A stretch of DNA of 29,296 bases from a virus. How positions within the stretch are numbered: the stretch's first letter is position 1; every line of letters begins with the position of its first letter. A program made the position numbers and the translations under genes. The notes beneath the pieces are model-generated. The model was given only the letters and a program-made list of their open reading frames with translations, had not been told where the DNA came from and made no database searches. Below are positions 163-16,284 of the stretch, piece after piece. The stretch is taken from the UHGV virus genome UHGV-0080837, one strand, 5' to 3'.

Positions 163-1191
163 ATGAGTGAATTAATTATCTCTGGCAGTTCCGGTGGTTT
201 TCTGCGCAACATTGGCAAAGAGTACCAGGAAGCCGCAGAAAACTTTATGCGGTTCATGAATGACCAGGGAGCTTATGCGCCGAATACTCTGCGCGACCTC
301 CGTTTGGTGTTTCATTCCTGGGCGCGCTGGTGTCACGCTCGCCAGCTTGCCTGGTTTCCGATCTCACCAGAAATGGCCCGCGAGTATTTTCTTCAGCTGC
401 ATGATGCCGATCTGGCTTCGACCACCATTGATAAGCACTACGCCATGCTGAACATGCTGCTTTCGCATTGTGGCCTTCCGCCACTTTCGGATGATAAAAG
501 TGTTTCTCTGGCTATGCGGCGCATCCGGCGTGAAGCGGCAACTGAAAAAGGCGAACGAACAGGCCAGGCTATACCGCTGCGGTGGGACGATCTGAAACTG
601 CTCGACGTCCTGTTGTCCAGGTCAGAACGGCTGGTGGACCTGCGCAACCGGGCTTTTCTCTTTGTTGCATACAATACGCTGATGCGTATGTCGGAAATCT
701 CGCGTATTCGTGTAGGAGATCTGGACCAAACAGGTGACACTGTCACGCTACATATTTCACACACGAAGACAATAACGACCGCCGCCGGGCTTGATAAGGT
801 GCTTTCCCGTCGCACTACCGCTGTGCTGAATGACTGGCTGGATGTTTCCGGGCTTCGCGAACATCCTGACGCAGTGCTGTTCCCGCCGATACACCGTAGC
901 AATAAGGCCAGGATCACGATAACGCCCCTTACTGCACCTGCAATGGAGAAAATATTCAGCGACGCCTGGGTGTTGCTGAATAAAAGAGATGCTACGCCAA
1001 ACAAAGGAAGATACCGGACGTGGACCGGGCATAGTGCACGCGTCGGGGCCGCTATTGATATGGCTGAAAAGCAGGTGTCTATGGTGGAGATCATGCAGGA
1101 AGGAACCTGGAAGAAACCGGAAACACTTATGCGGTATCTTCGCCGTGGCGGCGTGTCTGTGGGGGCTAATAGCCGCCTGATGGATTCGTAA
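163..1191 (+). CDS. cre: Cre-family tyrosine site-specific recombinase (diverged homolog of phage P1 Cre)
   Basis: 342-aa ORF alignable by eye to P1 Cre along its length: VSLAMRRIR, AFLFVAYNTL.R..EI.RIRV.D, TKT, GHSARVGAA.DMA, and a C-terminal MRYLRRG segment holding the candidate catalytic Tyr. ATG at 163, TAA at 1189-1191. Confidence 0.88.
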   Translation: MSELIISGSSGGFLRNIGKEYQEAAENFMRFMNDQGAYAPNTLRDLRLVFHSWARWCHARQLAWFPISPEMAREYFLQLHDADLASTTIDKHYAMLNMLLSHCGLPPLSDDKSVSLAMRRIRREAATEKGERTGQAIPLRWDDLKLLDVLLSRSERLVDLRNRAFLFVAYNTLMRMSEISRIRVGDLDQTGDTVTLHISHTKTITTAAGLDKVLSRRTTAVLNDWLDVSGLREHPDAVLFPPIHRSNKARITITPLTAPAMEKIFSDAWVLLNKRDATPNKGRYRTWTGHSARVGAAIDMAEKQVSMVEIMQEGTWKKPETLMRYLRRGGVSVGANSRLMDS

Positions 1192-2587: not shown

Positions 2588-3265
2588 ATGAATAACAAGG
2601 CAACGAAAGAGCTTTTTAAGCTCCTTCCCAAATACAAAGCTCAAAAAAACGTTAGTGCATCGAAAATCAAAAATGTTGTTATTTTCGGAGTAACTGATAC
2701 CCCACTTTGGGGCAGCATCGAACTCGTTGAACCTAAAGGGGCAACAGTTTGTGTTGACGCAATGTTTTTACAAAAACACCGACCAAAAACTGGCGGGTAT
2801 CTGATCGTTTATGAAAACGGTTATCTGTTCTATGCCCCGGAGAAACCATTTGAGGAACGCTATGGCCTGGTTAACGACGCCTCCAAAAATGGAACCACGG
2901 TCATCATTACGGATGACAACGGCGTGATGATTAATCTTACCGGGAGCGTAACTATTTCTGCTGGTGGCATCACCACCCAGCAAGAAGAAATCGACCTTGA
3001 AGCAGCCGACTTTTCTGACGCGCTGATGTGGCTGAAGGATGGCAAGAAAGTTGCCCGGCGCGGGTGGAACGGCGAAAACCAATTCTGCTGGCTGGTTCCT
3101 GAAGGACAGTACCCGGCACGAATGGAAGCCATTAAGGGATATTTCCCCGGCGATCTCGTTCCGTATGGTGCTTATTTCGCCTTAAAAAATGCACAAGGTG
3201 TAGTTGTTCCGTGGGTGCCTTCTGTAGGCGACTTACTGGCATGTGACTGGTTTGTAGTGGAGTGA
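2588..3265 (+). CDS. two-domain protein: unknown N-terminal domain plus C-terminal DUF2829 (Tad2-like) domain
   Basis: 225-aa ORF. C-terminal ~85 aa (FSDALMWLKDGKKVARRGWNGEN ... WLVPEG ... VVPWVPSVGDLLACDWFVVE) matches the DUF2829 pattern as I recall it; the N-terminal ~140 aa are unassigned. Confidence 0.6.
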   Translation: MNNKATKELFKLLPKYKAQKNVSASKIKNVVIFGVTDTPLWGSIELVEPKGATVCVDAMFLQKHRPKTGGYLIVYENGYLFYAPEKPFEERYGLVNDASKNGTTVIITDDNGVMINLTGSVTISAGGITTQQEEIDLEAADFSDALMWLKDGKKVARRGWNGENQFCWLVPEGQYPARMEAIKGYFPGDLVPYGAYFALKNAQGVVVPWVPSVGDLLACDWFVVE

Positions 3266-5935: not shown

Positions 5936-6208
5936 TTAAGGCTCACATTTCCAGATGGTATTCTGAACACCAGAACCGGGCGCTAGATGAGGGTTAGCGT
6001 TCGCGCTATGCTGATATACTGCTTTAGACTTCCCATATTGCTGACAGGCTTTATCTGCGGTTTTTTGCAGGCTATCCAGGCCATACCAACCATCTGACTG
6101 TATGCTTACCTTTTCACCGTCGTTGTATTGCACCATTGCACACCCAGATATAGCCAGTATCGCGCCGACAATAACGCTTTTCCATAAAACTCTATGCAAC
6201 ATATACAA
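5936..6208 (-). CDS. small lipoprotein, YgdI/YgdR-like (DUF903-like)
   Basis: Signal peptide with lipobox (ILAISGC); mature N-terminus [18 protein letters not shown] resembles the YgdI/YgdR pattern. Confidence 0.45.
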
Positions 6209-6247
6209 AAATCCCCTCTGTGAATTGAGGGGATTTTAGCATGGTGA

Positions 6248-8652: not shown

Positions 8653-9239
8653 TTTGCCTCCTGCGGCGGTTCTGGTAGCGGCATCCAGTGTGATGGTATC
8701 CACGACGCACCAGGTATTACCCACCCATCATTAGCGTCAGGATGCCCCGGGATGTAAGTCGCCCATTTCATTCGCCAGTCACCTTTCCTGTCAAACTCCC
8801 TGGCAACAAGAACGGCTGTTTTGGTATCCGGCATTCGCTCACTACAGCTTATCCAACTATCCGGAATTACCGGATAGTTGCGCATTGCGACCTTTAATGC
8901 CTCATAGAAGCAACCTTTCAGATTGTTGAACTGACGCCCATTTAGCGGGCCGTGTTCAGTCAGCATGTTGTGTAATTTCCATGCCGCGTCGTTTACTTCG
9001 TTGGATGACAGGGGAGGCAACTTGTAAGTTTGGCTTACAGGTTCGGCACCATGAAGCATGGCAGCACGGCAGGCGTTCCAGCCAGCTGTTCGCCCAAGCG
9101 AGTAAACTTCAGATGGCTCAAGATAATCAATGTCATGCCCGTCCTCATCGTCGTTCTCAGGTAATGCAGCAGGTACTACTGGTACTGGAGGGGGCGGCAT
9201 AAACAGGAATAACGTCCGCTTGCTCTTTATTGCTTTCAT
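8649..9239 (-). CDS. DUF551-domain phage protein
   Basis: C-terminal region (WISCSERMPDTKTAVLV ... GWVIPGASWIPSHWMPLP) fits the DUF551 pattern. The start is uncertain (alternative ATG at 9200); the track ORF overlaps the upstream gene by about 80 nt. Confidence 0.5.
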   Translation of the reverse strand: MKAIKSKRTLFLFMPPPPVPVVPAALPENDDEDGHDIDYLEPSEVYSLGRTAGWNACRAAMLHGAEPVSQTYKLPPLSSNEVNDAAWKLHNMLTEHGPLNGRQFNNLKGCFYEALKVAMRNYPVIPDSWISCSERMPDTKTAVLVAREFDRKGDWRMKWATYIPGHPDANDGWVIPGASWIPSHWMPLPEPPQEAK

Positions 9240-9417
9240 CCGTTAAAGCCCAGAATAATTTCCCGGCCGGATGTTTGAAAATATAAGCAACTGGATCTGC
9301 TTCCAGCGATGCCAGTGCAATTTCATAAGCCCGGCGTTCAATATTGTCTCGAACGTCCAGGCTGCTGATACGCTCTTTGATTTCTTTAATCAGTTCTTTG
9401 TCGGTTAAAGTGGTCAT
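9157..9417 (-). CDS. hypothetical protein
   Basis: 86-aa ORF, ATGA-coupled to the upstream gene. Confidence 0.4.
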   Translation of the reverse strand: MTTLTDKELIKEIKERISSLDVRDNIERRAYEIALASLEADPVAYIFKHPAGKLFWALTDESNKEQADVIPVYAAPSSTSSTCCIT

Positions 9418-9623
9418 TTGTTAATCCTCAAAACTTTATGCCCGGGCGCAAAAGCACGTGTTTTGTCTTTGCTTATTCGCCAGCCATCCTTACGTGCCTC
9501 TTTTGCACAGCCAGCCCATGACGTACCGATATATTCACCGAAGTCTGGCACTGGATATACACCTTCCGTACACTGGCGGCAGTCACAATAGAGATGCATG
9601 GTGTAACTTGCGGCAATAGCCAT
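9414..9623 (-). CDS. small Cys-rich protein
   Basis: Start placed at the ATG at 9621-9623 (MAIAASYTMHLYCDCRQC...), preceded by AAGGAG; the track ORF extends to 9695 in an overlapping frame. Confidence 0.4.
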   Translation of the reverse strand: MAIAASYTMHLYCDCRQCTEGVYPVPDFGEYIGTSWAGCAKEARKDGWRISKDKTRAFAPGHKVLRINK

Positions 9624-9624
9624 A

Positions 9625-9813
9625 TCACTCTCCTTTAGTGCGCAAATGGTTTTTCCAGCGGTTTTGCGCCGCGCTGGGCTTTTTGCAAAAACCACAATCC
9701 ATCATCCCGTAATATTTCATCAACCCCATCCGTCGGTTGCTGAGTCTCACCCACTGCCAGACGCCAGGAGCGTTTCTACGAACTAACAGAATCTTTGCTT
9801 TACGGTTTTTCAT
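9625..9813 (-). CDS. small basic protein (MKNRKAK N-terminus), copy 2
   Basis: 62-aa ORF whose ATG overlaps the stop of the upstream paralog (ATGA at 9810-9813). Confidence 0.35.
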   Translation of the reverse strand: MKNRKAKILLVRRNAPGVWQWVRLSNRRMGLMKYYGMMDCGFCKKPSAAQNRWKNHLRTKGE

Positions 9814-9986
9814 CTTACTGCGTACCCTTTCTTCCGCCTGTTCTGTGACGCAGTAGGCTTACGCTTTGCGGCAAAAGCCACCTGACCAAATGGATGGAGT
9901 ACCGCTATCTTATGGTTGCTAATAACCAGCTCCACCACACGCACAGGTCGCTGTAAAAAAAGTCGTTTTGCCTTACGGTTTTTCAT
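9810..9986 (-). CDS. small basic protein (MKNRKAK N-terminus), copy 1
   Basis: 58-aa ORF, below the ORF-track cutoff, translated by hand from the ATG at 9984-9986. Its first 7 codons are near-identical in DNA to the downstream copy. Confidence 0.3.
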   Translation of the reverse strand: MKNRKAKRLFLQRPVRVVELVISNHKIAVLHPFGQVAFAAKRKPTASQNRRKKGYAVR

Positions 9987-10158
9987 CGCTTTGCTCTCCT
10001 GCGTCTCTTTGCTGCTCGTCGTGCCGCTGCAATACCGGTATGGCGGCGCTTTGGTGCTGGGGTGATGTTGTCAGCCATCAGGACCTGTGGCTTTGCAATT
10101 AGCGCAGAAGCCCAAAAACGAGTCGGGTACGGTAACAAGCCAATACATGCCACACGCA

Positions 10159-10605
10159 CTACTCACCTCCGTTGATGCGAATGCCTGTTGCAATGCTGTT
10201 TATGATGCTGTCAGTGCATGGGGTAGAAAGCTGGGCATCTCCAGCAATTTTCATGACATCAACATCTGCATATCGAATACCGAGGTGTATCAGACCGGCT
10301 ATACCTGACTTAAGCCGAGCATTTTCCATAAACAGATCCTTTGCCCGCTGTTTTTCTGCCTCAAGCTCAACGCGCAACTTCCCTACCGTTAGCGCAATAT
10401 CCTCGTTCTCCTGGTCGCGGGATTTGATGTATTGCTGGTTTCTTTCCAGTTCATCCAGCAGTGCCAGCGCGATATCTGGCGAAAAGTGCTTCATAAAATC
10501 GTTAAGCGCATTAATTCGCTGATCGAAGGGCATTACAGGTGCTTCACCAGCAATTTTTGTTTTTTCAGCGATTTCACGAAGCTTTTGATAATCAATCTTG
10601 CTCAC
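10159..10605 (-). CDS. Ea22-like phage protein (paralog 3)
   Basis: GTG start preceded by AGGAGG; N-terminus MSKIDYQKLREIAE shared with the neighbouring paralog; coiled-coil middle. Confidence 0.55.
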   Translation of the reverse strand: MSKIDYQKLREIAEKTKIAGEAPVMPFDQRINALNDFMKHFSPDIALALLDELERNQQYIKSRDQENEDIALTVGKLRVELEAEKQRAKDLFMENARLKSGIAGLIHLGIRYADVDVMKIAGDAQLSTPCTDSIINSIATGIRINGGE

Positions 10606-11189
10606 TGGTTGCCTCCTTTGCGAAGCTGTTCAGCAATACTTACGCATATCTCTGCGCCTCTAATCAGCCCCGGAACGTTCTTGTTTGGCCCAACTTCACC
10701 ATCAACAAAATCAATCATCGCGTTACGAGCCATATCCACCCCCTGCGCACGTACTTCAGCCAGGAGAGCGTCGGTAGCTGGGGTTTCCGTGAAGTTGTCC
10801 TCCCAACCGTAGTACTCCTGACGACAGAAGTTATTAAATTCCTTCTCCGACTGTTTAAGCGCCGCATTCTCCACTGCCAGCGCCGCGCACTTGGCCTCAA
10901 GAGCGGCAACCACTTCCTGATGGTCTTTGTACTTAACGTATGAGCCGGAGATGTCATCACCTTCGGTGTTTAGCCATGCGTCATTGCAATTCACTGCGTA
11001 GGTTCTGATGCTGATGCTCTCCCGCCCCTGACAGACGCCAGGCCAGTCAATAAAGTATCCGCAATGCCTACCCTCAGACGTGCGCGCAGGATAAATGCCG
11101 TTATGACCCGGCAAAATATATGCTACCCATTCATCTTGCGTTGCCTGTTCCGCCGCCTCGCGCAGTTCTTGATAGTTAATTTTGCTCAC
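10602..11189 (-). CDS. Ea22-like phage protein (paralog 2)
   Basis: GTG start preceded by AGGAGG; N-terminus MSKINYQELREAAE; C-terminus ATDALLAEVRAQGVDM ... QLRKGGNQ shared with the 14072..14506 paralog. Confidence 0.6.
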   Translation of the reverse strand: MSKINYQELREAAEQATQDEWVAYILPGHNGIYPARTSEGRHCGYFIDWPGVCQGRESISIRTYAVNCNDAWLNTEGDDISGSYVKYKDHQEVVAALEAKCAALAVENAALKQSEKEFNNFCRQEYYGWEDNFTETPATDALLAEVRAQGVDMARNAMIDFVDGEVGPNKNVPGLIRGAEICVSIAEQLRKGGNQ

Positions 11190-11475
11190 TGGTTGCCTCC
11201 GCTTCCCACGTTTTCAGACTTTCACCACAGAATGGGCAAAATGAAACTCGAATAGGCGATTTAGAAAATTCACCAGACCGCAGCATGATCAGGTCCTGTG
11301 AATGAATTAATTCATGGTTATAGACTTTGTATTTCAGCAGGCCTTTTCGCGTCGTGTATTCAGCATCCTGCTCCAGAGATTGTGCCAGCGCCGCGCACGG
11401 TTCTATTTTTCTGCCATTAATCAAACAAGTGGAGATTCTGCACTTTGCAGCTCCGTCACCGTTACCTTGACTCAT
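11176..11475 (-). CDS. hypothetical protein with CxxC pairs (possible zinc ribbon)
   Basis: 99-aa ORF with CRISTC and CPFCG motifs. Confidence 0.4.
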   Translation of the reverse strand: MSQGNGDGAAKCRISTCLINGRKIEPCAALAQSLEQDAEYTTRKGLLKYKVYNHELIHSQDLIMLRSGEFSKSPIRVSFCPFCGESLKTWEAEATSEQN

Positions 11476-11488
11476 TGCGTTGTTCCCA

Positions 11489-12484
11489 TCAGTTATTAAA
11501 CGTGATCACTCCGCGCTCGATGGCGAAGTCGAAAAGCTGGTTAGCGACTACATAAAGGCGTATGCCATGTGCTTTTTCCCATGCCCGGACATCGTGTTCT
11601 GCGCTTCTGGCGCAGTCATCGCAAAGAGGAACAGCCCAGCGGTCGTGTTCGTTTAACGAGCGGGCGCGGTACATGAACGGGTGGTTAACTTTGCTACCGC
11701 ATCCGATGCACGGACGAGAAACCACAAAGCGGAGATAAGCCGGGCTTTTTCCGAGTAAGGTTTTTGGACGGCGCATATATAGGAGGCCAGAATCCTCATC
11801 TACAGACAGGTTGACGATCTGCTCTGCGGTTATGTCCACCAGCTCGCGCGTACTGCGCTCCCAGGTGATATCTGATTCTTTCAGCGTACCGGTAGGGATT
11901 TCAGTTTTTGGCTGACAAAATGCAATGCGCCCGGCTTCATCTGGCAGCTCATCTTTCAGATTCCGGCGAATGGCCCAAAAAGTGAGTTCAACCATGCTCA
12001 GATCGCGTTCTGGCGGTAGTTTTAACTCGCTCGCAGCCCAGTTCATAACCCAGTTGGCGCGATTCAGGGATAACTGGTCGTCCAGCTTGCTGTACCCCTT
12101 CATCATGTATTCCGCATCATGCTTCCAGCACAGGCGAACGGCAGAGCCGTTATAGAAATGAGTGGTTAGCTGGTGGCTGCAATCGCGCTTATCGTGCGCC
12201 TGGCAATCGTGGATATTGGAACTTACCCAATGAACAAGCGAATCTTCACCGCCTAACGCGTTAAATACGCGCTCGCTTTGAAAAAATGGTTTCAGCGACT
12301 GGTTGGCAACCAGCGAATAATTCAGATCCACTACGCCATCTGGAGTGTTTTCAGCCTGTTCTCGCGGAAGTGGTGAGATAATGAAACGGCGACCTGCGCC
12401 GATGTAGTTGCTGGTGGGCTTGTCTACCGGAAAGACAGCCACACCAGTTTCATTTACGACATATGGGGTGATTATTGCACTCAT
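11489..12484 (-). CDS. DUF968-like prophage protein
   Basis: 331-aa ORF with C-terminal Cys/His cluster (CIGCGS ... CDDCARSAEHD) as in lambdoid DUF968 proteins. Confidence 0.5.
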   Translation of the reverse strand: MSAIITPYVVNETGVAVFPVDKPTSNYIGAGRRFIISPLPREQAENTPDGVVDLNYSLVANQSLKPFFQSERVFNALGGEDSLVHWVSSNIHDCQAHDKRDCSHQLTTHFYNGSAVRLCWKHDAEYMMKGYSKLDDQLSLNRANWVMNWAASELKLPPERDLSMVELTFWAIRRNLKDELPDEAGRIAFCQPKTEIPTGTLKESDITWERSTRELVDITAEQIVNLSVDEDSGLLYMRRPKTLLGKSPAYLRFVVSRPCIGCGSKVNHPFMYRARSLNEHDRWAVPLCDDCARSAEHDVRAWEKAHGIRLYVVANQLFDFAIERGVITFNN

Positions 12485-12527
12485 AATGCATACCGACTCT
12501 GTTTTGTTCCGAGTGGTAAAATAATAT

Positions 12528-12558
12528 GTTAGAAAACTAAAATCAATATTCTAACGCA
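12528..12558. promoter_or_regulatory. operator dyad with leftward promoter-like elements (internal promoter)
   Basis: TGTTAGAAAA (12528-12537) and TTCTAACGCA (12549-12558) in inverted orientation. Minus-strand TTGATT and an AT-rich -10-like hexamer overlap it. Confidence 0.4.
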
Positions 12559-12581
12559 TTTTGAGTGCGTAAATGATTTGA

Positions 12582-13274
12582 TCAGACTTTAAGCTGCCCT
12601 CCCTTCACCTGCATTAGCGTCAGATTTCCACAAAAAACCGCGCCCGTGTCTATGTAGTGCTGATTCCAGTATGCTTTTGGTCTTCGTACCGGTGTGTGCC
12701 CAAAGATAAAGCGATCTGCGCCTGTGATTTCTCCACCAATGCCATCTATCGAATCACCGACGCGACTGCGCGACCAGACAACATCAAAAAGCGATACATC
12801 CTTACCGAACTGGTACTCTCCACCTGGATAGTCGGCATGGGCTATAACGATAGTTTCATGTCCGGTGTTCAACTCAATGATATATGGCAGACGCTTTACC
12901 AGCTCCACCAGCGCCTTGGCTAATATTTCCTGATCAGTGTCCAGCATGAAGAACCATTGTCCGCCATTCATTAGCCAGTTATTCACGTTGCCATCAGGAC
13001 TTAACGCATCAAGCATCAACCGCTCATGGTTCCCCATTACTGCCCTGAACCAGGGCATCTGCAATAGTTCCAGACATTCGACATTTTCAGTACCGCGATC
13101 GATAAGGTCGCCAACCGATATCAGTAAATCCTGCGCCGGGTCAAAATCCACACGATGGAGTTCGGACATCAGTCTGGTGTAGCAACCATGCAGATCACCA
13201 ACTACCCATATGTTTCTGTAGCCAGAACCATCAATACGGCTATATAAATTCACTTCATGCATAGCCTGGATCAT
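12582..13274 (-). CDS. Ser/Thr protein phosphatase, bacteriophage lambda PPase family
   Basis: Near-colinear similarity to lambda phosphatase from memory: [48 protein letters not shown]. Start taken at the ATG at 13274 (ATGA overlap with the upstream stop). Confidence 0.9.
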
Positions 13275-13582
13275 GCGGCAACCTTCTCCCGCAGCCAGAT
13301 ACAAACTGGACCATCTTCAGTGTCATGAATAGAGCCAACAAACCAGCCTTCACCCTCTGGTCGCTCCGGTTCCCAGGCGGCAATATCGGGACCAGCTGCG
13401 TCCAGATCAAAATCATCTTCATCCATACTGCGAATAGTCCACTGAAGATTATTTTCCTTCATCCAGGCGTCAAATTCCTCAGTGGATATATATTCACGAC
13501 CTGCGCAAAACTTTTCATACTCCGGATGTGTCCAGCAGCCATATTCATCACGTTCTACCGGCATTTCTTTAATGATGCTCAC
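13271..13582 (-). CDS. hypothetical protein
   Basis: 103-aa acidic ORF in operon context. Confidence 0.45.
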
Positions 13583-13803
13583 TCTTCATCCTCCAAGTCG
13601 GCAACGGCATCCATCACATCAGAACCGCGAATAACCTCAAAAGCACGGCAGGCCATTTCAAACACCTGTTGTTCTTGCGGATGCGGTGACTCCCAATACT
13701 TAAAACCAGGTCGATGCTCGTAACCCATCATGGAATAAAAATCGCCAGCAAGTTCAATCGCGGCATCAACAAGTTCGCGATTTGTCATCGTCTGTTCTGT
13801 CAT
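13579..13803 (-). CDS. hypothetical protein
   Basis: 74-aa ORF, ATGA-type coupling on both sides. Confidence 0.4.
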   Translation of the reverse strand: MTEQTMTNRELVDAAIELAGDFYSMMGYEHRPGFKYWESPHPQEQQVFEMACRAFEVIRGSDVMDAVADLEDEE

Positions 13804-14075
13804 TTTGTTTTCTCCTGTCTGAACATCACTATCATCAGGTCGCCTTTTGTCGCTATCCTGGCTGTTGTGCCAGGCTCAATGCGGCTAAGTTCAAATGCGT
13901 CATAGAACGCCTCTAACGCTTTCTGGCGTCTCTCCTGTTTGCGGCGCTTTCCCCACTGCTTTAGAAAAACAGAGGCCGCCCACTTCCCCGCACTGAACAT
14001 GATGTAAAGCCAACCGAGAAGTGCCAGACCGGAATTTAGGAGCGTATCGATCGTTATTGTCGTGTCGATATTCAC
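13800..14075 (-). CDS. small membrane protein
   Basis: GTG start in the same AGGAGGCAGCCAGTGA context as the Ea22-like genes; hydrophobic segment LLNSGLALLGWLYIMFSAG. Confidence 0.4.
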   Translation of the reverse strand: MNIDTTITIDTLLNSGLALLGWLYIMFSAGKWAASVFLKQWGKRRKQERRQKALEAFYDAFELSRIEPGTTARIATKGDLMIVMFRQEKTK

Positions 14076-14506
14076 TGGCTGCCTCCTTTGCGAAGCTGGT
14101 CGGCGAACAAACGTACACTAGACGCTTCACTGCGTAGAAACTTAACGGCATAATCAAAACCACCTCGTTCTGCGTCGTCTGCTCCGTTGTCGAGGTTATC
14201 TGCGTACATCTCTACCCCCTGCGCCCGTACTTCAGCCAGGAAAGCATCGGTGGCTGGAATGGGCTTTTGTGGTGATATAGCAATACGTATTGTCTCAAGG
14301 TCTGGATCTGTTTCCGCTGTTGGCACCTTGATATAACCCATCTGCACCCCATTCATGATGAACCTGCGACAGTCATCACATATCGCCTTTAGCCCTGCAT
14401 TCTCCGCCGCCAGCGCCGCGCGCTCTTTCTCAAGACGGAAAATTTCCGTCACATACTGAGCGTTACGCTCCGCCAGTTGCTCTGGCGTTAAACCTTCAGA
14501 CTTCAT
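14072..14506 (-). CDS. Ea22-like phage protein (paralog 1)
   Basis: ATG at 14506 preceded by AAGGAGAG; C-terminus ATDAFLAEVRAQGVEM ... QLRKGGSQ shared with the paralog at 10602..11189. Confidence 0.55.
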   Translation of the reverse strand: MKSEGLTPEQLAERNAQYVTEIFRLEKERAALAAENAGLKAICDDCRRFIMNGVQMGYIKVPTAETDPDLETIRIAISPQKPIPATDAFLAEVRAQGVEMYADNLDNGADDAERGGFDYAVKFLRSEASSVRLFADQLRKGGSQ

Positions 14507-14813
14507 GCACTCTCCTTTCGAAATAAACGTACTGATTAATCATGCCCAGGGGCATTTCGAGTTTTTCTGCGATCTCACGGCGGGGAACACCGCACTGATG
14601 AAGCTGCCGCGCCAGCTCTATATCGCTCTGCCGATATTTGGCTGACTGGTGAAAGTCACCTTTCAGAATCATTCTGATCCCCAGCTCTCGCGCTTTAGTC
14701 CTGACGGCATCACCGGTACGACCGATCAGCTTCCCGATACTCTCGACCGTCATAGTTCCGGCGCACTGGCGGAGTATCATGATTTCTGCCCTTCCCCATC
14801 CCCGCCAGCTCAC
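14496..14813 (-). CDS. putative helix-turn-helix DNA-binding protein
   Basis: 105-aa ORF with two HTH-like segments (TVESIGKLIGRTGDAVRTKARELGI and VPRREIAEKLEMPLGMI). Family not identified. Confidence 0.4.
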   Translation of the reverse strand: MSWRGWGRAEIMILRQCAGTMTVESIGKLIGRTGDAVRTKARELGIRMILKGDFHQSAKYRQSDIELARQLHQCGVPRREIAEKLEMPLGMINQYVYFERRVHEV

Positions 14814-15433
14814 GCCGACATCCTCTGAGACATAAACTCCACAAAACGAACTGCATCTTCAGAAACAACGCCGCATGACTTCAGATAATTCATTGCGTCA
14901 TTAGGTAGCGGATTAGTTGGTTCGGCATTTGCCAGGGATTGAGATAAACGCGTGATTAATTTGACCATTCTCCGCTGTCGGAGGTTGTATCCTTCGGCTA
15001 AAGACAGGTAACTGGAAAGGGTATTGCTTAAGCGAGCGCGAAGCTGATCCGTGCCGTGACATTCAATAGCAACATCACGTAACGCATCGACCAGTTCGCG
15101 GTAAATATGCGCTGCCATTCTGCAATCTGTGTCAGATGGCGCTTCATAAATTACCGTCAGCTCCAGTTTTTCAGCCAGGGCGTGTTCTGCTCGTGCTCCT
15201 GCGGACGCTTCCCAGCCCTTAAGCAGATAGATAGCATCAGCAGAACGCACCATTGCCAGGCAAATATCCATGTATTCACTCTGACAAAGGCCACCAGGTA
15301 ACACAGCTGGATTCAGAACGATATGCCCTTCAGACATCAGCTCGCTCGCTTTCGCATTAAACGCCGCACGGTTGTAGTCTGGATAACCAGTCATCGGCCC
15401 CGCGATGTAAATTTTCAAAACACGTTTCACCAT
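14810..15433 (-). CDS. DUF4406 / nucleoside 2-deoxyribosyltransferase-like protein
   Basis: N-terminus VLKIYIAGPMTGYPDYNRAAF ... VLNP ... LLKGWEASAGARAEHALA matches the DUF4406 pattern. Start taken at the ATG at 15433, which overlaps the stop of a small upstream ORF (TGATG). Confidence 0.55.
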   Translation of the reverse strand: MVKRVLKIYIAGPMTGYPDYNRAAFNAKASELMSEGHIVLNPAVLPGGLCQSEYMDICLAMVRSADAIYLLKGWEASAGARAEHALAEKLELTVIYEAPSDTDCRMAAHIYRELVDALRDVAIECHGTDQLRARLSNTLSSYLSLAEGYNLRQRRMVKLITRLSQSLANAEPTNPLPNDAMNYLKSCGVVSEDAVRFVEFMSQRMSA

Positions 15434-15588
15434 CAAAATTTCCCCAAAATCGTGACGCAAAACATAAGCACTGCGAAAAGCTCAATACCAAGCTCAAGTA
15501 GCGCCAGCGCCCCGAAAAACAACACATAGAACAGGCCAATCTCATTCACAGATGGCTGGTGGATCGCACTTAAAGCTATAAGCATCAT
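15433..15588 (-). CDS. small hydrophobic leader peptide (about 50 aa)
   Basis: Hand-translated: MMLIALSAIHQPSVNEIGLFYVLFFGALALLELGIELFAVLMFCVTILGKF. GGAGG precedes the ATGATG at 15583-15588; first ORF of the leftward operon. Confidence 0.3.
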   Translation of the reverse strand: MMLIALSAIHQPSVNEIGLFYVLFFGALALLELGIELFAVLMFCVTILGKF

Positions 15589-15613
15589 GTCCTCCAAACA
15601 GTTATCAGGAATG

Positions 15614-15705: not shown

Positions 15706-16284
15706 ATGCAGAAACAGAGCTATTGGGAGAAACAGAGACAAAAAGCCATGCAAAAATTGGCTGACCCAGCCTGGCGAGAGGAACAAAGGGCAAAGCGCCT
15801 TCAACAAGCTCAACGCCAGCAGCAACGAGCGAGAGAAAAAGCCGCATCGCCTGAATATCGGCAAAAGAGAATTGAAAAAGCAAAGCAATATGACCAGCGG
15901 AGAAAAGAGAAAGCTGTATCCACTCCGTCCAAAAAAACACGCACGTCACGCGGCCTGAAGGGCAGATCACTCACAGCCGATGAACGCCGGATACAGACCG
16001 CTATCGGTACTCTCCCCTGCATTGCCTGCCATATTCACGGGCAACATAGCCCAGTGGTATCCCTGCACCATATCTTCGGGAGAACGGCAGAGAACGCGCA
16101 TAAATATGTCCTCCCTTTGTGTAAATGGCACCACCAGTACGCAGCGCCAGCCGAGGTCCGAGAACAATATCCCTGGCTGGTCCCTGTTCATGCTGACGGA
16201 AAAATAGGCGGAAAAGCAGATTTCATGCGGCACAATGCCGATGAAATGGCGTTGTATCAGATGGCGATTGAATTGATAAATTAG
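15706..16284 (+). CDS. ref: Ref-like HNH-family nuclease (P1 recombination enhancement function type)
   Basis: 192-aa ORF with a long, highly charged K/R/Q/E-rich N-terminal region followed by a Cys/His core (CIACHIHG ... SLHHI ... LPLCKWHH), matching the known architecture of P1 Ref. AAGAGG RBS. Confidence 0.55.
   Translation: MQKQSYWEKQRQKAMQKLADPAWREEQRAKRLQQAQRQQQRAREKAASPEYRQKRIEKAKQYDQRRKEKAVSTPSKKTRTSRGLKGRSLTADERRIQTAIGTLPCIACHIHGQHSPVVSLHHIFGRTAENAHKYVLPLCKWHHQYAAPAEVREQYPWLVPVHADGKIGGKADFMRHNADEMALYQMAIELIN

Follow-up and report, generated by a model that had tools for sequence, protein, structure and literature searches.

This study concerns a short repeat at the gene boundaries of an operon with Ea22-like genes in the viral genome UHGV-0080837, of which a stretch of 29,296 nucleotides (the window) was analysed. 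All genes of the Ea22 region lie on the minus strand, and in the order of transcription they run from a DNA-binding-like open reading frame (ORF) through a 144-aa ORF, a DUF4752 gene, two small ORFs, a Ppp-type phosphatase gene, a DUF968/PdcB gene and a 99-aa ORF to two Ead/Ea22-like genes, which encode proteins of 195 and 148 aa (Table 1) and are followed by several further small ORFs. The repeat, here called the cassette, lies at three of these boundaries (junctions 1 to 3), and its 15-mer GGAGGCARCCAGTGA on the coding strand (TCACTGGYTGCCTCC on the plus strand) occurs in exactly three copies, at 10602-10616, 11186-11200 and 14072-14086; no further copy of TCACTGGYTGCCTCC was found in the window with up to two mismatches allowed. 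The chance expectation for this three-copy 15-mer is 0.12, and three or more matches were reached in none of 100 shuffles. In self-comparison, 10602-10634 and 14072-14104 align over 33 nt at 91% identity, 10602-10634 and 11186-11218 are 73% identical, and 10557-10633 and 11141-11217 align over 77 nt at 70% identity, with an exact core of 19 nt (10598-10616 and 11182-11200).

An initial annotation of this DNA had reported near-identical 3' ends of about 30 nt in two genes, and the 33-nt alignment bears this out; in the self-alignment of the window, the repeats proved not to be shorter or more degenerate to an extent that would undo the observation. The second of two 26-mers, previously placed at 14083-14108, lies 10 nt away, at 14073-14098. 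GTG starts at 10605, 11189 and 14075 are as had been described, and the same GTG starts have been chosen in the RefSeq annotation of relatives. Of the 16-nt start cassette ascribed to the three genes, 15 nt are common to all copies, since the copy at 11189 reads CGGAGGCAACCAGTGA. Moreover, the genes that start there are not the three supposed paralogs, but the 148-aa and 195-aa Ea22-like genes together with the DUF4752 gene (13800-14075).

On the coding strand, the consensus of the cassette is ...CAG CTT CGC AAA GGA GGC A(A/G)C CAG TGA, and junction 1 reads ...GAA CAG CTT CGC AAA GGA GGC AAC CAG TGA GCA AGA.... Read as a signal, it is a gene junction with the layout of translational coupling, composed of a 7-base Shine-Dalgarno (SD) sequence, AAGGAGG, a 6-nt spacer, CA(A/G)CCA, and a GTG start that overlaps the TGA stop of the preceding gene (GTGA). 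The SD sequence lies at the junctions inside the upstream ORF, 6 nt before the start and within the 5-9 nt expected for coupling; at junction 2 it is GGAGG, at 11194-11198. Stop and start overlap as GTGA at 10602-10605 and 14072-14075, and by 14 nt at 11176-11189. The C-terminal tail QLRKGG(N/S)Q, reported earlier as common to two ORFs, was recovered at junctions 1 and 3. At junction 2, the cassette falls in a different reading frame of the upstream 99-aa ORF (..EAEATSEQN*), whose stop lies 14 nt into the 195-aa gene, and therefore that copy is conserved as DNA, namely as a downstream start region, rather than as a peptide tail.

The same arrangement prevails beyond the window. Among the loci fetched, ORF ends of the type [LIVM]R[KQRET][GEQ]xxx* overlap the next start in 267 of 267 cases, as GTGA in 239 and as ATGA in 28. 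In loci of other genera, chosen by protein similarity, the residues at the SD position vary (K-G, Q-E, K-E, Q-G) while the GGAG core is kept, which suggests that the ribosome-binding site accounts for part of the shared tail. From the layout we infer that coupling takes place at the junctions, and the DUF4752 gene would be translationally coupled to the 144-aa ORF via junction 3. Other junctions of the region have their own repeated or SD-coding ends. The 148-aa protein closes with a second SD-coding tail, ..GIRINGGE* (ATTCGCATCAACGGAGGTGAGTAGTG; 10157-10185, minus strand), and the TAG stop of its gene overlaps by 1 base the GTG of a 58-aa ORF (9983-10159), which RefSeq leaves unannotated in L205, the sole relative checked; many Ea22-like proteins of other phages end in ..IRIKGE* or ..IKGGE*. 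Farther downstream, a pair of MKNRKAK-head junctions belongs to tandem small paralogs (genes 9625-9813 and 9810-9986, minus strand), and this junction is also a boundary in another plasmid.

Table 1. Junctions, genes and shared islands of the Ea22 region, with the integrase of the window
Feature	Position	Strand	Description
Junction 1, tail to head	10598..10634	-	195-aa ORF tail AEQLRKGGNQ*, SD AAGGAGG, spacer CAACCA, GTG of 148-aa gene
Junction 2, head only	11182..11200	-	SD core, spacer, GTGAGCAA start of 195-aa gene; wider repeat 11141-11217
Junction 3, tail only	14072..14104	-	144-aa ORF tail ADQLRKGGSQ*, SD, GTG of DUF4752 gene over TGA
MKNRKAK-head junction, copy 1	9794..9814	-	Ribosome-binding site and head of small gene; 95% identical to 9967-9987
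MKNRKAK-head junction, copy 2	9967..9987	-	95% identical to 9794-9814
105-aa DNA-binding-like ORF	14496-14813	-	First in transcription order
144-aa ORF	14072-14506	-	No Pfam Ead_Ea22 match; coiled coil and helical-hairpin C-terminal domain
DUF4752 gene, 91 aa	13800-14075	-	Pfam PF15944, E = 8e-41
Two small ORFs	13579-13803 and 13271-13582	-	After DUF4752 in transcription order
Ppp-type phosphatase	~12582-13274	-	Follows the two small ORFs
DUF968/PdcB	11489-12484	-	HNH endonuclease in the D6 annotation; inside the operon
99-aa ORF	11176-11475	-	PHROG 4030, upf87.4-like; 3' end overlaps junction 2 out of frame
195-aa Ead/Ea22-like ORF	10602-11189	-	Pfam PF13935, E = 2e-17
148-aa Ead/Ea22-like ORF	10159-10605	-	Pfam PF13935, E = 5e-23; PHROG 368
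Island (T)PATDA(L/F)LAEVRAQGV(D/E)M	10731..10781	-	88% identical to 14207-14257; start of first C-terminal hairpin helix; mosaic breakpoint in relatives
ATDAFLAEVRAQGVEM island, second copy	14207..14257	-	Homology to relatives ends at 14257
Coiled-coil island (..CAALAVENAALK..)	10855..10902	-	79% identical to 14388-14435; mosaic breakpoint in relatives
Coiled-coil island, second copy (..RAALAAENAGLK..)	14388..14435	-	Homology resumes at 14388 in D6 and pEP91B-2
Cre-like integrase	163-1191		Only tyrosine recombinase of the window, 9 kb from the junctions

The proteins on either side of the junctions had been taken for three Ea22-like paralogs, a description that fits the 148-aa and 195-aa proteins, which score 82.6 and 64.4 bits against Pfam PF13935 (Ead_Ea22; gathering threshold 27 bits), but not the 144-aa protein, which has no match to PF13935 at E <= 0.01 and has only C-terminal islands in common with the 195-aa protein. 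PHROGs 368 and 492 are matched by all three proteins, each via different parts; the 144-aa and 195-aa proteins hit the same mosaic PHROGs 368, 492 and 614, of which the 144-aa protein matches the C-terminal parts only. Likeness between the 148-aa and 195-aa proteins is confined to the first 15 residues (11/15 identical), that between the 195-aa and 144-aa proteins amounts to 38% identity in the C-terminal half, as islands only, and comparison of the 148-aa with the 144-aa protein gave no significant similarity. The 148-aa protein begins with the head MSKIDYQKLRE, followed by a widely shared coiled-coil block, while the 195-aa protein opens with MSKINYQELRE as its head and continues through a middle domain, a coil block and the ATDALLAEVRAQGVDM island to its tail, QLRKGGNQ. 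At the nucleotide level, the islands common to the 195-aa and 144-aa genes are the coil block (79%), the ATDA island (88%) and the tail (91%). The three proteins are mosaics with heads, islands and tails in common, which agrees with the mosaic ea22 genes already published (PMC10834534). Within the 148-aa gene, a block of ~120 nt (10351-10468) that encodes the coiled-coil segment ..LLDELERNQQYIKSRDQENEDIALTVGKLRVELE.. is 90-95% identical to very many E. coli prophages, including that of BL21(DE3), and homology ends pile up more strongly at this block than elsewhere in the region. A 215-aa 'fusion' of the 144-aa protein with DUF4752 (P0033) was set aside as the product of an error-ridden assembly with several frameshifts, and it gives no evidence of read-through.

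An AlphaFold model of the 144-aa protein (42-sequence alignment, mean pLDDT 81) predicts a long coiled-coil helix at residues 8-55 and a C-terminal helical hairpin at 84-115 and 118-140, with pLDDT >90, which extends from ATDAFLAEVRAQGVEM to ..FADQLRK; the last four residues, GGSQ, are non-helical in the model (pLDDT 53). As the predicted hairpin ends at FADQLRK, FAxQLRK is probably conserved for a structural reason and GG(N/S)Q for a translational one. When the sequences of all three proteins were compared by phmmer with Protein Data Bank (PDB) sequences, including the lambda Ea22 C-terminal domain, nothing below E = 0.5 was found.

The element that carries the operon is a D6-like (P1-related) phage-plasmid with a lambdoid-type accessory operon and not a lambdoid prophage, the context supposed initially, because it matches best with ~90-kb plasmid prophages that are related to D6, a phage akin to P1. 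Against 9900-14900, pEP91B-2 is 96.8% identical across 91% of the segment and phage D6 is 95.6% identical; several Shigella and E. coli plasmids are 98-99% identical to the window region, and an E. coli contig of 92.7 kb encodes a protein identical to the 144-aa protein of the window. Relative to phage D6, the window has 584 bp more, i.e. the whole 195-aa gene. In D6, the end of the 99-aa gene is joined through one single cassette directly to a 148-aa-type head, and this hybrid junction locates the crossover within the exact 19-nt repeat GGAGGCAACCAGTGAGCAA common to the two cassettes. In ten D6-like plasmids, the match to the window is unbroken from 10586/10589 to 14900 at 98-99% identity; just past GTGAGC they part from it and continue with another Ea22-like gene. 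The Shigella plasmid L203 has a swapped segment (window 9811-10585) flanked on either side by backbone of 99.2-99.8% identity; the right edge of this segment is junction 1, and its left edge is the first copy of the MKNRKAK-head junction. The same 148-aa gene is preceded by another tail allele in L204, and a chimeric tail, CVSIA|DELRRGSSK, is found in L156. A P1-like plasmid matches 9619-11181 at 99.7% and continues with an ATGA junction without the cassette. At junction 3, the homology of the window to D6 and pEP91B-2 ends at 14085-14087.

The cassette is widespread, and it is combined with many partners. Its exact 24-mer, CTTCGNAAAGGAGGCARCCAGTGA, has been found in at least 120 viral contigs. 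Judged by the immediate flanks of 100 nt, the 120 junctions listed with the exact 24-mer (viral contigs and relatives) join 17 upstream to 26 downstream bodies in 69 pairs; among the matches listed, a cluster has up to 11 partners, and flanks of 300 nt give 55 upstream and 32 downstream clusters in 83 pairs. The bodies that precede the 24-mer comprise several kinds of hairpin of the form ATDAFLAEVRAQGVE-variable-FAAQLRKGGNQ, bodies without the island in their last 60 residues, and an HNH endonuclease fusion, while the genes that follow include several Ea22 heads, DUF4752, DUF7446, methyltransferase-like and PAPS-reductase-like genes, and homologues of the 74-aa and 99-aa ORFs of the window. 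In the IMG/VR contig L121, an HNH endonuclease stands in frame between an Eae-like head and a ..TDAQLRKGGNQ tail, in an ORF that ends at the cassette, an arrangement reminiscent of the eaE-HNH fusion reported in gene 31 of phage epsilon34 (PMC2629481). Recombinant pairs were defined as non-redundant pairs with at least 97% identity on one side and no relationship on the other. In pairs that share the downstream side, divergence sets in at -18..-35 in all 54 of 54; in pairs that share the upstream side, it sets in at +1..+6 in 11 and at +12..+40 in 19, which accounts for 30 of 30.

The junction was found in 298 phage records, among them Stx phages, HK633 and mEpX1 as well as the P22-like EaE|EaA junction, and in 1115 of 5426 complete E. 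coli genomes (21%), at up to eight places per genome and on chromosomes as well as plasmids. The exact 24-mer has no match in the 185,579 species-representative genomes of GTDB; the cassette resides in strain-variable mobile elements and prophages. A protein-guided scan yielded 24 loci of other genera with diverged tails, whose junction alleles include CTTCGCAAAGGAGTGCAGTCATGAGC in Enterobacter and Citrobacter. DUF4752 was first thought to lend further support to shuffling at the junction, since in a sample of 80 loci picked via DUF4752, and hence unbiased for the cassette, it has 20 upstream versus 6 downstream partner clusters when flanks of 300 nt are used. Tail-type junctions, in several DNA alleles, make up about half of those upstream of DUF4752 in this sample; the argument was dropped after it failed with the immediate flanks. 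Shuffling is evident at the tail-to-Ea22-head junction, where ~80 nt are conserved, but not at the tail-to-DUF4752 junction.

Taken together, these observations can be accounted for if the junction was built for coupling and has been kept by its function, with its copies doubling as homology patches for the exchange of whole genes, an account which we regard with moderate confidence as the right one. Function is the best explanation for the conservation of the cassette: selection acting on the expression of the following gene would preserve the sequence of the cassette, the peptide ...QLRKGG(N/S)Q would in part follow from the ribosome-binding site, and FAxQLRK would be the closing stretch of the helical hairpin predicted for the C-terminal domain of the highly mosaic Ead/Ea22/Eae-like family. 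Where the next gene is also Ea22-like, its head, MS[KE]I[ND]YQxLRE, would lengthen the conserved patch to ~80 nt. Because near-identical copies stand at several operon boundaries and in co-resident prophages and phage-plasmids, they may also act as short homology patches, at which homologous or homeologous recombination would delete, insert or swap whole genes; any exchange at the cassette would automatically keep the end of a reading frame, a ribosome-binding site and a start codon. Repetition would thus turn the cassette into a de facto linker for recombination. In many phages, it appears to have been the place at which whole genes were swapped, inserted or deleted, and the crossovers probably took place inside it through homology. 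Such exchange would be helped by relaxed phage recombination (PMC2327257).

The proposal of the initial annotation that the conserved junctions are recombination linkers is partly supported. In its favour are one whole-gene indel bounded by cassettes, several sharp boundaries on near-identical backbones and extensive combinatorial reuse with many partners, and the predicted coincidence of breakpoints with cassettes is seen in close relatives, at junctions 1 and 2 in D6 and at junction 1 in the ten plasmids and L203. Several points weigh against a role of the cassette in recombination. At 14085-14087, both D6 and pEP91B-2 have unrelated junctions that are free of the cassette. The cassettes do not stand out as breakpoints: homology ends pile up most within the 148-aa gene, at 10340-10359 and 10460-10479, and at other conserved islands, and thus several anchors, the cassette among them, exist in this thoroughly mosaic family. 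Whatever mechanism produced a joint, homology stops where a conserved island stops, and therefore the coincidence of breakpoints is by itself no proof of a crossover in the cassette. The tail is present as at least 87 DNA alleles with synonymous changes, as ordinary purifying selection predicts, and in the DUF4752 sample, with 100-nt flanks, each junction allele occurs mostly with one upstream body, which therefore indicates little shuffling at the tail-to-DUF4752 junction there. In addition, a homology of 19-33 nt is close to the lower limit for RecA-type recombination.

The breaks at cassette-free junctions and inside genes, the many alleles with synonymous changes and the result from the DUF4752 sample are what would be expected if the cassette had a function only, as a translation signal and helix end, and its joints had arisen by illegitimate recombination followed by selection, or through long flanking homology, with no causal part played by the cassette. 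That every tail-type ORF end overlaps the next start fits this alternative equally, as does the statement in PMC3029335 that most mosaic boundaries are without conserved sequences. Three observations are difficult to reconcile with it. The identical 24-mer, including the rare codons CTT and GGA, follows 17 unrelated upstream bodies among the matches listed, which would require convergence if no exchange occurred at the tail; the indel between D6 and the window falls exactly within the 19-nt direct repeat; and the left edges of the recombinant pairs all fall within the narrow range given above. A purely functional cassette appears unlikely, though it is an alternative of some weight.

One feature of the cassette, the CTTCGC upstream of the SD sequence (e.g. 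10620-10625 and 14090-14095), is conserved at the nucleotide level without a supported explanation. The Leu codon of the tail is the rare CTT in 75 of the 79 Leu-bearing alleles, 19 of the 20 alleles of other genera among them, while the adjacent Ala codons vary freely. This has a bearing on more speculative readings. According to the most far-reaching of them, the junction is a standardised 'socket' (CTTCGC-AAAGGAGG-N6-GTGAGC) that has been kept at the nucleotide level across Enterobacteriaceae phages and is actively used by a nuclease or recombination function (HNH, Ref, or a Red/Erf-type annealase). We consider this quite improbable; if it were true, accessory and possibly counter-defence genes would be moved between prophages and phage-plasmids with guaranteed expression, and the fixation of CTT and the nested HNH endonuclease in one relative would be traces of the activity.

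Another reading, to which we give still less credence, holds that a phage enzyme (an HNH homing endonuclease, the HNH protein DUF968/PdcB or Ref with RecA, for instance) recognises or cuts CTTCGC..GGAG..GTGAGC and that the resulting breaks drive exchange. The conservation of CTT beyond the need of the peptide, the in-frame HNH endonuclease of L121 and the presence of the Ref and DUF968 genes next to or in the operon can be cited for it. The site, however, is without an inverted repeat or palindrome, none having been found at the junctions, no one enzyme regularly accompanies the cassette in lambdoid, P22-like and D6-like hosts alike, and the connection is one of co-location only.

It is just as doubtful that the cassette is an RNA element, in which a mini-hairpin (CUUC with GGAG) would mask the SD sequence until the upstream ORF is translated, or that it is the target of a small RNA. 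Such an element would account for the CTT codon bias, and the 4-bp CUUC:GGAG stem is pairable in 89.6% of cells, compared with 42-77% for slid controls. The stem is very weak, however, its covariation is not above that of shuffles, the fold z-scores of the junctions (-1.5, +1.3 and -0.3) are not significant, and an Rfam search of 9000-15600 at E <= 1 gave no matches. An SD-masking hairpin, whether as CUUC:GGAG or as GCUUC:GAGGC, was rejected on these grounds as pairable but with neither covariation above shuffles nor significant folding energies. Finally, although SD sequences are purine-rich and alike everywhere, a chance resemblance of three ribosome-binding sites is already refuted by the number of 15-mer copies, by their pairwise extensions of 33 nt at 91% and 77 nt at 70%, and by the spread of the 24-mer.

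Outside the Ea22 region, the window codes for the Cre-like integrase, a dUTPase, a Tad2-like protein, Ref, a Rha-type regulator and RdgC. The Tad2-like (Thoeris anti-defence 2) domain lies in a 225-aa protein (2588-3265, plus strand; Pfam PF11195, E = 2e-22), the gene of which adjoins that of the dUTPase (2079-2573). The gene of Ref, a RecA-dependent nuclease of the recombination enhancement type (15706-16284, plus strand), is divergent from the operon; Ref and DUF968/PdcB are thus encoded close to a recombination-prone gene array, a proximity that may or may not be meaningful. A scan for promoters and terminators showed nothing notable within the Ea22 region. The best terminator-like hairpin, with an 11-bp stem followed by a T-run, is at 6208-6237 (minus strand), and it may mark the end of a long leftward operon that holds the Ea22-like genes.

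Overlapping stop/start junctions (ATGA or GTGA) with translational coupling are typical of tightly packed bacterial and phage operons, and the cassette resembles them in its 4-nt GTGA overlap, in the strong SD sequence 6 nt upstream inside the preceding ORF and in the C-terminal K-G-G of its tail, which is dictated by AAAGGAGG. Unlike plain junctions with the coupling layout, it recurs between many gene pairs that are unrelated, and its conservation extends to ~24-35 nt, more than an SD sequence and a start need (CTTCGC). Integron gene cassettes with their attC sites are comparable in that promoterless genes are inserted in series behind the promoter from which they are expressed, and each boundary bears a repeated element. 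The junctions, in contrast, have no imperfect palindrome or foldable structure, the repeat is coding and serves translation, and there is no integron integrase in the window, where the Cre-like enzyme is the only integrase.

The mosaic ea22 genes of lambda and Stx phages (PMC10834534; PMC7093339) are likewise composed of an N-terminal head and coiled coil (Pfam/InterPro Ead_Ea22), followed by C-terminal domains that are interchangeable, and they too belong to an early accessory operon. The region differs from them in its 144-aa protein without an Ead_Ea22 signature, in its phage-plasmid host and, as regards lambda Ea22, in the lack of a sequence match of its proteins to solved structures, the lambda C-terminal domain included; the junction cassette is not described in these two papers. 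Closest to the present case are the boundary or 'linker' sequences in the modular theory of lambdoid phages (Susskind & Botstein 1978; Clark et al. 2001 on HK620; both as cited in PMC3029335), which are short conserved boundary sequences whose flanking modules differ among phages and which have been proposed as sites of homologous recombination for reassortment. The cassette has these properties, and at least one indel is bounded exactly by two of its copies. It differs from linker sequences in being mostly coding (a tail and the head of the next gene), in doubling as a ribosome-binding site and in being common to integrated lambdoid or P22-like prophages and P1/D6-type phage-plasmids. A literature text search by motif strings, which did not cover the contents of Clark et al. 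2001, found no prior description. The cassette is a new example of the known boundary-sequence idea, applied to a specific and very widespread junction.

For the linker hypothesis of phage modular evolution, there have been few clean examples, and most mosaic boundaries are without a shared sequence. Here, one identifiable junction of 24-35 nt carries a ribosome-binding site and the next start, is present in about one fifth of complete E. coli genomes, joins dozens of gene bodies and brackets a whole-gene indel between two sequenced phage-plasmids; with these properties, the hypothesis becomes directly testable. For annotation, it is a warning that 'Ea22-like paralogs' are mosaics with shared heads, islands and tails rather than whole-length homologues. 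In addition, lambdoid prophages and P1/D6-type phage-plasmids use one common pool of early accessory genes.

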